Source: Xylographa opegraphella (lineage: Eukaryota). Taken from it: DNA of 64,000 nucleotides. Positions 44,819 through 50,472 of this stretch are shown here, piece by piece. Below the pieces are notes generated by a model. That model was not told the origin of the DNA. It did not search any database and saw only the letters and a program-made list of their open reading frames with translations. Numbering within the stretch: position 1 is the stretch's first letter; each line of letters starts with the position of its first letter. The position numbers and the translations under genes were made by a program. The stretch covers positions 1 through 64,000 of the forward strand of contig JALDZX010000063.1 of assembly GCA_022813865.1 (NCBI GenBank), written 5' to 3'.

Positions 44819-45732
44819 CGTTTGGTCGAGGCTTAGATCGGTGGTTACAGTGGTGGTGCGTCAAGCTTAGCGAGATGCTGAAGTGTTTGCAGTCAAAGGT
44901 GATGATGTAGAACGTAGGGAATCAAGAAAGCTCTCAGACCATCGCAAACACAGGCCAATTGATGGAGTACCTCGATCGAGGAGAGGAAGGAAAGGCAGTC
45001 CGAGATGAAGTCAGTGTGATTCGCAAGAGCTGATGGGAGAGAAATCCAGAAGGGAAGGGTCATTGTTCATCGTCCGCACAGTCCCTTTCTACAAACCCTA
45101 ACAATGTGTCTGCGTCCACTCCCGCCTTCTTCATTCGCTTCTCCGGTGCGGCTGCTGGCCGCTCATTGGCTGGCGGTCTACAGACATGATGCTGTCCCAT
45201 GGGAGTGATGTCACACATTGAAACACTGATGTGCCTGAAGCTATGGCACTTCAGACAGCACCAACACTACTAGGAACGTCAGCTTCGGTCAATGCGGGCA
45301 GTCTCATTTAACGCGGATATGGAATGGATATTGAATTCTCCCCCGTTCAGATGTGGCATTTGCTTGCTATACACGTAGCGCGAGATCAGCATAGACGACA
45401 AGAATTTTAAAGCTTCCTCTAGAGGATTCAGTGCTGCTCGTCTATCCCAACCAACCTCTACTAATGTACACTGTGCTTCCGATGCCACGCAGAACTGCCA
45501 TAGTGTTCTTGGGTTGATCAGCTGAGCTCACCACAGCTCGAATGCATGTCTTCCATCGCCTTCTATGATTCCCGATTTGTAGGTCCCAGTCTTACATTTC
45601 GAAATGGCCGCGAAATGTTCTCGGGCACATCCCTGTCCTTCACATACATCTTCTTCCCAATGGTGATACGTTAACTGCTCAATATGGCGACGGTATACTG
45701 GACTTGCGGTCTGACAAGCAAAGAAGGTTAAG

Positions 45733-47884
45733 CTATTGAGAGAAGACGCTATCGAAGCCTCTCCCATCGGTCTCGAGGCGGGCGCCGACACTCTGCTGCT
45801 GTTGCATGTAAAGCTCGTTCAAACGACTGACAGGTATCGGATCGGTGGCAGAAGGCATATCTGGGCTAAGTGCTCCTGGTGGTCCCATCGGCAGACCTGG
45901 GCCAGGCATGGGTGGGTGTAGGTGTGCGGCATGTGGACTAAAGTACCATACAAGCTTGTCAGCATAGATCTGCCTCTCAGTGAATACTGTGGTACAGCCA
46001 GCCACAAGTGGAATTGAACTTCGCAATACACATTGCCACGAAGGAAACCTTTACAAATGAAAACTCATGTTGAAGCATGTCTAATCGAGGCCTAGGAACA
46101 TCTCAAGCTATGGCGGCAACTTTTGGGTGGGTGTGCTAGATAACATGCCAGTAAATTGGAGCTCAATGCCTTCGGCCCATGAACACCACATTCTTTCGAG
46201 GATGCAGAAGTAGCTACATAGAATCTGAATCTCGTGACACTCGTCATCTCGTCCGACAATAGTCGTACACTCGCTCGACATTGCATAGACTTTTGCAAAG
46301 TGCCACCTCATATCCTCTAAGTGCATCTGATAAAGTAGCAATCAAGTGGGACAAGCTTATGGGTATGGTGAAGGAGATCATCGCTAGCTGAAACACAGGC
46401 CGCTAGGTACAGCAGGAGAAGAAGAAGGAAGCTCTTACTGGATGAACGTCAGCGTACAGTGAACCTGCATACGATCCGGGAAGAACATACCTTCATTGGT
46501 GCAAAATTCCCATATTGGTGCGTGGGGGGCATACCCATTGAAGGATACACTGGAGGAGGCGGCGCTGGACGATACGGCGTTCCTGCTGGCCCGGAATTGT
46601 TCTGGCTGCGGCCCCAGCTGAGACGTACACGCGAGTTTCCGATCGGGTAACCTTGCATCTGGTTGATAGCCATCTCCGCGGCATGGCGTTGCACAAACTG
46701 CACGAAGCCGCATCCCTTTCCTGGTGGTATCTTGACATAAGTAATTTCACCAAAGCCTTGAAAGAAAGAACGAAGCTCATCCTCGGTGACATATCCAGAT
46801 AGACCACCGACGAAAACAGTGGTATTGTTCGGATCCGTGAACTGATTCATTGGCTGAGGTGCTCCGTAGTAGCCCATCGGAGGAGCACCCATAGAATACA
46901 TCCCGACCGGTCCCTGGCCACCACCCGGCATGCCCATTCCACCCTGGCCGGGAGTACCGGACTTGTTCTTTGGTGTGGCGGTTGATATACGCATAGGTCG
47001 GTTTCCGCAGTAGACACCCTGCATCTCCGTGAGAGCTCTCTGCTGGTCGCTCTCATCGGCGAAGCGAACGAATCCATAGCCACGAGACATTCCACTGATA
47101 GGGTCGGTCATAATCTTGGCGGATTTGCAAGATGGAAAGCGACTTTGAAAGAGCGATACCAGGACAAATTCGTTGACTTCAGGCCCGAGATCGCCAACAA
47201 AGATCGAGTACTCGGGACCACGCTCATCACGGCTACTATAGATAAGCAAAGGCTACTAGAGGCCAGGGAAAGACTTGCCTCCTATCCGCAAGACCCCCAC
47301 CCGAAGCCCAGTTGAGCTTGAATGGTCGATTGGAGTTGGGAATCAAAGTACCGTTGAGAGTCAACGCTTTTGCAGCAGCAGCCGGACTCGCGAAATCGAT
47401 GAAACAATAGCCAGCATTACTGATTCCGTTAGTAAATCACCCAAACGGCAAATGGCTACGATGCCATACCCAGAAAATTTATCACGAATCATCTTCACAT
47501 TGACTTGCTCTCCCATATTGAACCATACACTACGCACAAAATTCTCGTCGATCCACGGCTCCAACTCACCCATCCTGCAAGATCGGGTTAGTGATTACTA
47601 CTTTAGTTTCCCACGGAATCTGTGCTTCAGCAAGTTGACAGCAATTGCTGAAGGGGTATAGAGGCAGAGAGCGCTCACCAAAGAGTCGTCTTCGCGTCAC
47701 CACCCTGCTGCCCACCAGCAGATCCAGGCTCGCCAACATTGCCACCCTGAAAAGGCACAGGTGAGTTGTCCATTTGCTGATTCCCCATTGGGTTTTCTTG
47801 CTGTTGTGGCACACCTGGGCCATTGTTGCCAGGATCTTGTTGCCCTGGCTGGCCTTGAAAGGTTTCATAGCTTTGGAAGCTCAT
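45733..47884 (-). CDS. Three-RRM RNA-binding protein of the Nam8/Ngr1/Csx1 (TIA-1-related) family; short isoform stops at 46435, long isoform at 45733
   Basis: Exons 47884-47679, 47574-47470, 47419-47279 and 47232/47235-46491. RRMs: TLWMGELEPW, YSIFVGDLGPEV...SRGYGFVRF and DPNNTTVFVGGL...GKGCGFVQF. Distal exon 45937-45733. Confidence 0.92.
45938..46491 (-). other. Putative [D1,2] spliceosomal twin intron (stwintron)
   Basis: Minus strand reads ATG AA G[GTATGT...GCTGAC...CAG]TAAGA...GCTGAC...TTTAG|T CCA. Internal intron 46490-46438; external intron is G46491 plus 46437-45938. Confidence 0.75.
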
Positions 47885-49292
47885 CGTAACGGACTGGTAA
47901 TTATTGACACTAAGAGATCTTGAACTGGAATTGACTTCGGAGACTACAACTCTCAGCGTAAGACGAGGTGACCAAAGGATGTCGAGTGAGTACTGAGAAG
48001 TGAACGGAGATCAAGGTGAAGGTGAATACTGCTGTGCGAAAAGTGAATCAGCTCTATTTTGTTTAAAGCCGGCGTATGACGACGCTGCTGCGAAGTTTTC
48101 TCTTCGCGACAGTGGGGCGAACAGTATGCTGCGCGACTTACGATACAATCGGTCCTACGAATGTGACTTGTCGCTGAAATCAATCCTGCACAATATGGAA
48201 TATCTGAGGATTACCGATTCAAAAGTCTCTTTCAGTAACAATACTCTGCGCCGAGAATAGTAGGCAGTAATGCGTGGGCGACACTCGGACGGTCGTGTAT
48301 CGATAGAATGGAACCCGCTGAACAGAGATGAACCAAAGCAGACTTTTGAGTGAGAATGGGATGCGAGTTATGTCTGTGTGCGAGTAGGTTGCAAGAGATC
48401 GATTGAGATTTGTACCCTTTAGATAGGATAATCGGTGCAGAAGATGCAAAGGATTCACTTGAATATCTAGGTAGTCACAATCCACGGCATTAGCCTTAAT
48501 TCACCACGATGGTAATGCGCTCGTGTCATTCACTGATATACCATTCGGGGCCGATGTGAAGACAGTGCGATATTGTGCGGTGATGGAACAGAGTGGGCTT
48601 ATTGCGCCGCGTGCCGACGAGAGTCCGAAGCGGCAGTGACCCAGCTGTCACCCGCAGCAGCTTGGCTCATCCCTCAGTGACAGGAGTTGTGGGGCATTTT
48701 GGATGCAGGCAAGGAGTTGAACTGGTGACGTCTCGGCACGACCGGGCATATGGGGGAAAGGGAAAAAAAATCGGTATGGGGCAGAGACTCACCACGGTTC
48801 AGAACGCTGCGCTGGATGCAGATAAAGCAGAGGCCGATCGATATCAAGAAATCAAGAACACCCGCGACACGCAAGGACACGACGAGACGAGATGATAATC
48901 GATAAAGACAATGCTTTTGGGTCGAGACGATCAGAGGAGGAGAGAGGGAGTGGGCGAGGGGAGGGGAGTGGACGTTATTATTATGGGCCACACACAAACT
49001 CAAATCCGGATAACTTTAGTTTCTCTTGCTACCTATCCTCTAAAAGCTTGTGACCAGCAGCTACGACGACCGCACGGCTGTACCACCGACGTGCACTTGG
49101 GGAGCAGCGGTGTTTCGCTGCTCGCCATGGCTGCGGCCACGGCCACGGCCACGACCACTCGGCTACGATGCTTCGGGTGCTGTCGTTCTCACCGCGTACG
49201 GAGGACTCCCGCTCTTGCTGCTACATTGCGCCATCTGTTTGGCGGCCAACAACTACACCATTGCTACTTTAGGCGATCCGCACCTGACGGGG

Positions 49293-49324
49293 GGAGGAGG
49301 AGGAGGAGGAGGAGGAGGAGGAGG
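49293..49324. repeat. (GGA)n microsatellite
   Basis: About 10 perfect GGA units. Confidence 0.95.
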
Positions 49325-50472
49325 CACTTAAGGTAAGGTAGGTAAGGATTTCTGATACTTGGGCCAGAAGCAGATTGGGGTAAGGTGGAAAGCTTTGCCT
49401 GCGCCCGCTGAGTGGCCAATGGCTTGTGGGCACTGGCAAGTCTATTATGCATGGTCATATCCGGCACGCTGCCTTTTCGCCGCCGAATGGGTTTGCCCCA
49501 ACCGCGGCTGGCCGCATGCGAGGCCGCGAAGGCAAGCACAGGCATCGATGAGCACGCACCCAGAGCTGAGAAGGCCTCGGTGTCGCGGAAAGATGAATGG
49601 CAGCGAAGGAGAGGCATAAGGTACGGTATGTATAATAATAATACTGAAGAGCTAATAAAGATTGTGTGGGTTTCGAATGACGGATCTCACTGTGTACAGG
49701 GCTGATGATGGACCTAGCCGAAATCCGAATTCTCTTAGGACCAAAGGGAGCTTAGCCTGTGAAAGACTTCGAAATCACTCGCATCTCTAGCACGCTGCAC
49801 AAGTCTGGGCGCGAAACATCTCGACTTGTGTCCCTCTCTCTCTCTCTCTCGCCCTCCTCCCTCCCTTCTCTCCCTTGCGTATCAAGCTGGTCCTGTGACG
49901 GGCCTTGCTTTGCGACTAGCATTCCCGACCCGCCAAGGGACCCTTTTTTCACTACTCGCTACAGAGAATTTCTGTCGGCCTCTTTGGGTTTAGGCTTTGG
50001 GGGGATTGTGGAGGGGGGCTTTCTAGAAGAATCGGCACTTGCCAGCTGTCTGCGCTCCCGTCACGGAGAAATCGCACATGCATCGTAATGCGGTCACGGG
50101 ACATGCGAACGCCTGAGTCTAAACTGTATGGACAAGCAGTCCACATGATGTCAATATCGACGCTCGAAGATGTCGTCCCACTATACACTATACACTGACA
50201 GACCCTCTTGGGACCTGCGATCTTGTCATCCGAATCAGTCCACCCCACCCTGGTGGTATATGGCCATGTATCCAATCCACAACTCCCCCATTTACGCTGT
50301 ACTACCCGCCCAGCTTGCTGACCCACCCCGATCCTGCTCGTGTCAAGTTGCAGCGGAAACCAAAATATACAGAACGGTGCCGTCAAGCGCCCATTCATCT
50401 GCATTCTGCACGTCGTCCACGCTTCGCCAGCTGAGATCGTGACATCGCACCGCAGTCCTTTGACATGTGGCG

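Follow-up and report, generated by a model that had tools for sequence, protein, structure and literature searches.

What does a cell make of a splice junction that is at once a stop codon and a new 5' splice site? The question is raised by the last intron of a minus-strand gene in a stretch of 64,000 nucleotides (nt) of Xylographa opegraphella DNA (assembly GCA_022813865.1, contig JALDZX010000063.1, positions 1 to 64,000; the whole stretch is referred to below as the window). Comparison with solved and annotated relatives identifies the gene as the orthologue, in a filamentous ascomycete, of yeast NAM8, a member of the TIA-1 family. The intron is, on the comparative evidence, a genuine and ancient twin intron (stwintron) of the class designated [D1,2], and it probably yields two C-terminal isoforms of the protein. 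The explanation that accounts best for the whole, and in which we place considerable confidence, is that a single splice generates a form of 398 amino acids (aa) and that an optional second splice adds an ancestral C-terminal tail.

All gene coordinates are positions in the window; the gene model lies on the minus strand and was checked by translation. Its 3' part reads as follows (here and below a caret marks a splice site or a splice junction):

47232-46492, minus strand: exon 4, with RRM2, RRM3 and a Pro-rich linker; common to both products.
46491, minus strand: G1 of the outer donor; third base of a Lys codon after one splice, removed by the second splice.
46490-46438, minus strand: internal intron, 53 nt, with GTATGT, branch point GCTGAC at 46453-46448, and CAG.
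46437-46435, minus strand: TAA, which stops the 398-aa form and doubles as positions 2-4 of the outer donor once this is re-formed, G^TAAGA.
46437-45938, minus strand: rest of the outer intron, 500 nt, with branch point GCTGAC at 45963-45958 and an acceptor, TTTAG, that ends at 45938.
45937-45733, minus strand: distal exon; its first T completes AAT (Asn), and 66 codons follow, with TAG at 45735-45733.

The common part of the gene closes with ...GCA CCA ATG AAG at 46491, and TAAGAG follows from 46437 once the internal intron is gone. Translation of the once-spliced RNA ends at AAG TAA, giving 398 aa that finish in APMK, and the 500 nt of 46437-45938 are then 3' untranslated sequence. The same junction presents a re-formed donor, AA^GTAAGA (G46491 joined to TAAGA at 46437-46433). 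A second splice, 46492^45937, generates AAT in frame and a 465-aa protein that ends ..DSVFSQ at the TAG. The remaining routes lead nowhere: splicing directly from 46491 to 45937 in one step leaves one G behind (+1) and yields 23 foreign residues before a stop, and retention of the internal intron yields 13 residues and TGA. The entire stwintron measures 554 nt, that is, the 53 nt of the internal intron plus an outer intron made up of G46491 and the 500 nt beyond. The first-pass annotation, which was made from the letters of the window, had described this nested layout (the 53-nt intron, AA^GTAAGA with its stop, GCTGAC and TTTAG), and each of its statements about the sequence is borne out base by base. 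The 67-codon distal frame that it entered through AA^T does translate to a 465-aa protein, and the 23-residue frameshift and the TGA were both reproduced. Its outer intron of 500 nt is exact for 46437-45938, but 1 nt short for the outer intron as a whole, to which G46491 also belongs.

The structural marks of the [D1,2] class are all present. The internal element is a complete U2 intron (5' GT, branch point, 3' AG); it sits between nt 1 and nt 2 of the outer donor, and its removal creates a G^URWGY donor (GTAAGA in the window); a separate branch point and acceptor serve the outer intron (in orthologues CTAAC or CTGAC, then AG^T); and the reading frame is restored solely by ordered, two-step excision.

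Could such a layout have arisen by accident at one locus? The last 140 residues of exon 4 were searched against metagenome contigs; 518 stretches matched, 349 of them encode relatives, and 80 loci were kept. They fall into these groups:

Class A, 27 loci (20 distinct): AAG^GT..(51-80 nt, CTAAC/CTGAC)..AG^TA(A/G).
Class B, 10 loci (5 distinct): an ordinary intron of phase 2 (AA^GTAGTT..); the tail lies 218-275 nt downstream.
Class C, 21 loci: a stop right after the last codon, without an internal intron.
Class D, 17 loci: contiguous AAY CCN, without an intron.
Truncated class, 4 loci: the contig stops short of the junction.
Odd class, 1 locus (L008): exon 4, 54 nt, then the tail.

Because the same arrangement recurs in the orthologous loci of many species, the nested layout is far beyond chance. 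Twelve distinct sequences of class A have a recognisable tail, placed approximately 520-920 nt downstream, and the acceptor is AG^T CC in all 12. The pattern AAG^GT...AG^TAAG, whose conservation among orthologues the first-pass annotation had proposed as a check, thus recurs, together with AG^T CC at the distal acceptor; its assignment of the element to the [D1,2] class, with a distal exon that is readable only after ordered two-step splicing, gains strong comparative support from these 20 distinct sequences and from the ancestral form of the junction (described below). The class B loci are Tuber-like and related, and lie on large genomic contigs. Class C consists of 18 Cladosporium-like loci reading CAG TAA, and of L016, L003 and L017. 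In the 17 loci of class D (of the 80 kept) the gene is intron-less at this point and the tail is contiguous with RRM3.

Why should a donor contain a stop codon? All 20 distinct loci of the stwintron type keep AAG. The window and 18 other distinct sequences have G^TAAG as their outer donor, and L043 has G^TAGAG. At these loci the internal donor varies freely: GTAC 6, GTAA 4, GTTC 3, GTAT 2, GTCA 2, GTTT 1, GTAG 1 and GTGA 1 (a tally in which the near-identical L004 and L047 are counted separately). Donors of the stop type accordingly number 20/20 for the outer intron versus 6/20 for the internal intron (Fisher p=3e-6, uncorrected for shared descent). All five distinct ordinary-intron lineages keep a non-consensus GTAGTT, which gives AAG TAG. 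Thus, in all lineages seen to have an intron here, RNA that is unspliced or half-spliced meets a stop immediately behind the last common codon, and the stop in the outer donor appears, on this comparative evidence, to have been selected.

Several individual loci deserve separate mention. In the ordinary-intron lineages (L005, L066-L069, L072, L077-L080) GTAGTT is followed by a very U-rich tract. The Cladosporium-like loci (L023-L041, 18 loci, of which L035-L038 are on contigs of 10.6-215 kb) have ..APRQ and then TAA in the genome; 10 mRNA-like contigs of this lineage are unspliced for up to ~900 nt beyond the stop, and these loci show no detectable tail within 3 kb. At L008 (positions 635-700 of the contig) AAG is followed by 54 nt (GTACGT..GCTCAC..CTCTA) that lack the final G of the internal intron, and then by T CCC CAT. 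Two histories fit this sequence: removal of the outer intron first, by way of a contiguous A^GTAAG donor, or an in-frame, ordinary intron of 88 nt in the genome. The L008 contig is probably chimeric, since its first ~165 nt look bacterial.

Is the distal exon coding sequence, and to which gene does it belong? When 1.84 billion representatives were searched in full with HMMER for the 67-residue peptide, 31 matches emerged at E<=1e-3, including 9 at E<=1e-10. Thirty of these were examined; P0026, a 762-aa protein that matches the Pro-rich part alone, five times over, was left out. (A technical note: a word-index search with the tail returned P0001 alone, which is a mis-fused model; this is a limit of the index and not a real absence.) Most of the 30 matches are orphan open reading frames (ORFs) of 55-157 aa. 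Twenty of them reach upstream of the tail, and 18 of these 20 read S-P-(Y/H) at that point, as reading through an AG^Y CC. acceptor gives; 23 of the 30 share a common C-terminal stop. Over the 67 codons, differences from L004 at the three codon positions number 15/8/37, and those from L009 number 15/10/37. This third-position excess is the coding-type substitution pattern for which the first-pass annotation had suggested looking, and the tail of the window is 75% identical to that of L004 as protein. Judged by these comparisons, the distal exon genuinely codes for protein.

Its ownership is settled by a set of orthologues collected with exon 4 as query and restricted to proteins of at least 432 aa; the best 120 of 1227 at E<=1e-40 are listed. 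The tail is the C-terminus of 37 of the 120 listed proteins. In 26 of those 37 the junction reads ..P(L/M/I/V)N^P(H/Q/N).., the same as in the two-step product of the window; the 26 include proteins of Pneumocystis, Saitoella, Lipomyces, Sugiyamaella (where it is called 'Nam8p'), Tuber, Morchella and Orbilia, and also the transcript-like P0036 and P0041. Ten of the 37 are genome-annotated models from lichen fungi that run to ..K and interpose from 2 to ~50 foreign residues before the tail, because a gene finder cannot model the junction. In intron-less orthologues the two-step junction, ..AP(L/M/I)N^P(H/Q)AAH.., is found uninterrupted. The distribution of the tail among these proteins identifies it as the ancestral C-terminus of the Nam8-type protein across Ascomycota.

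What the tail might do is less obvious. It has no match in Pfam or PDB, and comparison of the orthologue profile with yeast Nam8 detects no similarity between the tail and the C-terminal part of Nam8. Structure prediction yields one helix of moderate confidence at residues 36-59, with a predicted local distance difference test score (pLDDT) of ~85 there and a mean of 68, so that the tail is predicted to be a disordered, Pro-rich stretch followed by a single helix. Variant tails also exist: in some Dothideomycete-like loci (L014:2321-2530, L022:3953-4126, L010:4067-4234) the distal exon opens S^PY and then diverges. The diverged tails of L014 and L022 end in ..AF(A/S)QQLP and a stop and resemble ..GGAFSQQFPPQ, also followed by a stop, in Alternaria; L010 has an ORF opening S-PYAAS (a weaker hidden Markov model pass stands behind both of these observations, which are hints). 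The helix motif RLNE..Y..DRLEAD seems to be lost from these diverged tails.

Which of the two products is made? The RNA evidence comes from one run, a soil metatranscriptome that contains a relative, ~92% identical, of the fungus of the window. Four contigs of this relative were aligned; none covers 45600-45994 or 47417-47950, and these gaps support no inference. The contig of highest depth among the four, 795 nt long, joins 46491 to TAAGAGTTC (gene strand) and continues through 46424-46064: its internal intron has been removed and its outer intron kept, over at least 370 nt. A contig of another orthologue, L016, holds a 443-codon ORF (extending 5' of the start codon) from which all introns have been removed; it ends in APMK and a stop, with 542 nt beyond. 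L003 also shows the one-splice intermediate, and L077, an intron-free contig from an ordinary-intron lineage, ends in APLK and a stop (AAG TAG). A hand tally of transcript-like orthologues among 120 proteins listed by a separate search (42 proteins, found in JGI or Logan only, on contigs of <5 kb) finds 33 that end at K or Q, 5 long forms and 4 that retain the internal intron.

The long form also leaves a signature in RNA-like sequence. In an Alternaria sp., the intron-free ORF P0082, from a contig of 2176 nt, agrees with the genome model P0081 at 484 of 485 positions. The sole difference lies at the junction, where P0082 reads MMN^NFPV and the genome model reads MMK, 7 further residues and NFPV; P0079 and P0078 differ in the same N-for-K pattern. 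An N in the transcript where the genome encodes K and an intron is the signature of the removal of G.

These data bear directly on the strongest competing explanation, which is that the stwintron is constitutive: the 465-aa protein would be the sole functional product, the one-splice RNA a slow intermediate, and the TAA present only because GTAAG is the best donor. We regard this as unlikely, although it has points in its favor. The published intermediate of stwintron excision (the 'splinter') is described, in the accessible text of the source, as transient and yet detectable by RNA sequencing (PMC12403724); the tail is under purifying selection; and contigs cannot tell nuclear from cytoplasmic RNA. 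Four observations run counter to it: 1) The one-splice form is the one assembled, and hence dominant, in those 33 of 42 transcript-like contigs. 2) Lineages with an ordinary intron keep the weak donor GTAGTT, with its stop, which a 'best donor' argument leaves unexplained. 3) In the Cladosporium-like lineage, which has no internal intron, the stop stands in the genome itself, and none of its 10 mRNA-like contigs is spliced at this point. 4) Between the window and its relative the outer intron differs at 30 of 361 positions (8.3%), while all differences displayed in exon 4 (18 of 29 in 46491-46914) are at third positions, whose divergence is ~20.6% if all 29 are of that kind. The outer intron is thus ~2.5x better conserved than third positions.

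What is being conserved in the outer intron? Seven outer introns from different genera, when aligned, have blocks in common, which in the window fall at ~46150-46330 (minus strand): GGTGGCA..TGCAAAAGT, TGTAC(A/G)AC and TGTAGCTAC, several of them with UGUA. Such shared blocks might serve the one-splice mRNA in forming its 3' end or in its regulation. A search of Rfam with 45500-46600 gives no match at E<=1, so no known small nucleolar RNA accounts for the long conserved intron. The folded stwintron as a whole is less stable than shuffled sequence (z +2.06), which lends no support to a mechanism gated by structure.

A second competitor would make the distal exon a relic, no longer spliced in, with the short protein as the only product in the species of the window. 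Some related loci do lack a recognisable tail. This explanation is nevertheless quite improbable, because the 67-codon frame of the window is intact to the conserved stop, with the protein identity to L004 and the third-position excess already noted, and because branch point and acceptor have been kept, as has the phase. That the distal exon is instead the first exon of the downstream gene, as the NCBI models P0001, P0014 and P0085 have it (P0001, from Xylographa, starts at a Met within the tail and runs into the neighbor), is scarcely credible, since the tail ends at its conserved stop in the window as in 23 of the 30 matches, is contiguous with RRM3 in intron-less species, and adjoins a gene that has its own start elsewhere (for example MRYQDWDV.. 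in L035 and L019).

The explanation that we prefer, an ancient stwintron with an optional second splice, has its own difficulties, which should be weighed together. 1) The conserved TAAG could reflect selection for a strong donor alone. 2) The stwintron-type loci L012, L019, L021, L043 and L073 have no tail within 1.3-3 kb, and a tail of the Alternaria type was not found in the tail-less loci either; the second step may have been lost in some lineages. 3) The one-splice RNA is seen in relatives and not in the fungus of the window. The first-pass annotation had proposed that the intermediate is itself a complete mRNA, and this gains support in relatives only (the AAG^TAAGAG contig, L016 and the 33 of 42). 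4) No read or contig has the 46492^45937 junction, for the window or for any locus whose genomic DNA was examined; the long-form transcripts (P0036, P0041 and the Alternaria set) come from species whose stwintron is deduced from protein models, and the DNA of P0036 and P0041 is not among the 80 loci. 5) Both forms have never been seen within one species. No species has both genomic and transcript contigs among the 80 loci, where nearest neighbors differ by at least 13% in DNA; the proposal of an alternative C-terminus accordingly holds to the extent that both products occur in RNA-like contigs of relatives, and falls short of a single species containing the two. 6) Assembled contigs do not distinguish nuclear pre-mRNA from exported mRNA and show no 3' ends; no poly(A) tails were seen at contig ends.

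With these points in mind, one can lay out the steps that the optional-splice explanation would entail. In the first step, which looks constitutive, the internal 53-nt intron would be removed to leave an mRNA with AAG TAA and the 398-aa protein; the junction so formed would rebuild a 5' splice site, AA^GTAAGA, around the stop codon. The second, in a fraction of the molecules, would take out the G together with the next 500 nt, creating AAT and adding the 67-residue tail. This second step presumably takes place in the fungus of the window too; the one-splice RNA would be exported and translated instead of serving as a mere intermediate; and the relative amounts of the two forms would be under control. 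Two leads as to how are offered by analogy: an exon junction complex deposited in the first step may repress the re-formed donor, or the Nam8 protein may act on its own transcript.

A broader history can be sketched, although it is put forward tentatively and may well prove wrong. In it, the last intron of the NAM8 orthologue is a two-isoform device older than the stwintron; the stop has been part of the donor since the early Pezizomycotina (as GTAGTT, later as G^TAAG); the internal intron acquired in Leotiomyceta turned the device into a recursive splice that can be gated; and the long isoform went unrecognised in the majority of the listed Leotiomyceta annotations. If this were true, unspliced or half-spliced RNA would encode an RNA-binding protein without a tail, and full splicing would add a tail that bears a helix.

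How secure is the identity of the gene? Among solved structures S. cerevisiae Nam8 comes closest, aligning over RRM1-3 (E 1e-71 for a single orthologue as query, 7e-100 for the profile). TIA-1 comes second in the single-orthologue search, and the sole other match at the cut-off in the profile search is a poly(A)-binding protein. In orthologue P0036 three stretches match Pfam RRM_1, in keeping with a three-RRM family. Exon 4 is 92-94% identical to its counterparts in lichen fungi. Yeast NAM8 encodes a three-RRM component of the U1 snRNP (small nuclear ribonucleoprotein) that helps the U1 snRNP to choose 5' splice sites. The 5' part of the gene completes the model:

47884-47679, minus strand: exon 1, with the ATG at 47884-47882, a low-complexity N-terminal leader and the donor TG^GTGAGC.
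47678-47575, minus strand: intron 1, 104 nt, GT..AG.
47574-47470, minus strand: exon 2, in which RRM1 begins.
47469-47420, minus strand: intron 2, 50 nt, GT..AG.
47419-47279, minus strand: exon 3, from the translated gene model.
47278-47233, minus strand: intron 3, 46 nt, GC-AG (GCAAGT...TAG).

Intron-free contigs of orthologues read ..KTTLWMGELEPW.. through the junction of exons 1 and 2. For intron 3 the frame is kept solely by the GC-AG placement, no GT placement doing so; an RNA contig of the relative skips 46 nt here, with a placement that is ambiguous by 4 nt. Upstream of the gene, at ~49290-49330 of the window, a run of ~12 identical triplets shows in the translated ORFs as poly-G and poly-R in two frames of the plus strand and as poly-L and poly-S on the minus strand.

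Downstream (44634-42808 of the window, minus strand) lies a gene conserved among fungi, with 73% identity to P0001 over residues 49-586 of the latter; in the window, its first exon was not identified. Models that join the tail to it (P0001, P0014 and P0085) were considered and set aside as artefacts, the tail having its own conserved stop. Five further NCBI models (P0055, P0069, P0071, P0074 and P0075, 991-1232 aa) fuse the whole Nam8-like gene to this neighbor. Indeed, most of the listed Leotiomyceta genome models stop at ..APMK, add junk residues or fuse with the neighbor, because gene finders cannot model a GG..AG junction; mis-modelling of that junction is also the reason why a conserved C-terminal helix has gone unnoticed in these groups.

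Why does it matter whether the second splice is optional? In the literature such an intermediate counts as a transient by-product; this one is a clean ORF and, in many fungi, seems to be the predominant assembled mRNA. If two isoforms are indeed made, this is a natural case of recursive splicing choosing between protein C-termini, in a simple and tractable eukaryote, and in a gene for a factor of U1 5' splice-site choice, so that self-regulation is possible.

It remains to place the element among known systems (the papers cited below are represented by their accessible text, and the comparisons extend as far as that text does). [D1,2] stwintrons are an established class in Pezizomycotina: examples are those of lipS and bioDA and a set of 117 stwintrons in Hypoxylon sp. 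CO27-5 (PMC5639578; PMC9024468; PMC12403724). The searchable stwintron literature does not name the NAM8 orthologue, with the reservations that the founding paper of 2013 lies outside the search and that other supplements may list the gene; open-text searches found no literature that pairs twin introns with Nam8. What appears to be new here is therefore not the [D1,2] class, which was already known, but a conserved stwintron whose intermediate seems to be a complete and commonly dominant mRNA.

The element shares with known [D1,2] stwintrons an internal U2 intron between G1 and U2 of the outer donor, excision by two consecutive standard reactions, and a +1 frameshift on one-step removal. It departs from those described in the accessible text in three respects: 1) its re-formed donor has an in-frame stop right after the last common codon; 2) its intermediate is a clean ORF, usually the annotated protein and commonly the assembled RNA; and 3) its outer intron is long (500 nt, compared with 46-104 nt for the other introns of the gene) and has conserved blocks. 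The history of lipS, whose stwintron in Leotiomyceta corresponds to an ordinary intron in Pezizomycetes and Orbiliomycetes (PMC5639578), is parallel in that here, too, early-diverging classes (the Tuber-like and related loci) have an ordinary intron at the site. A reticulon-like gene of Aspergillus niger and A. nidulans has a stwintron that participates in alternative splicing, with skipping of the downstream exon (PMC6616335). Both are donor-disrupted stwintrons taking part in alternative mRNA forms; at the NAM8 orthologue, however, it is the optional second step that removes a stop and changes the C-terminus.

Animals repress 5' splice sites re-formed at junctions by means of the exon junction complex (PMC6224609, PMC8184009). 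The resemblance to metazoan recursive splicing lies in a prior splice that creates a 5' splice site whose use decides the isoform; the difference is that recursive splicing in animals removes very long introns or recursive-splicing (RS-) exons. A further comparison is with the Nam8-dependent introns of S. cerevisiae (in MER2, MER3, AMA1, SPO22 and PCH2), where the use of weak 5' splice sites is regulated and Nam8 promotes deviant donors, such as GUAGUA of MER3 (PMC3082912). That donor resembles the invariant GUAGUU of the ordinary-intron lineages, and pyrimidine-rich tracts come after the donor. Unlike the yeast introns, the target here would be the transcript of the NAM8 orthologue itself, and the outer donor of the stwintron lineages, GTAAG, is not weak.

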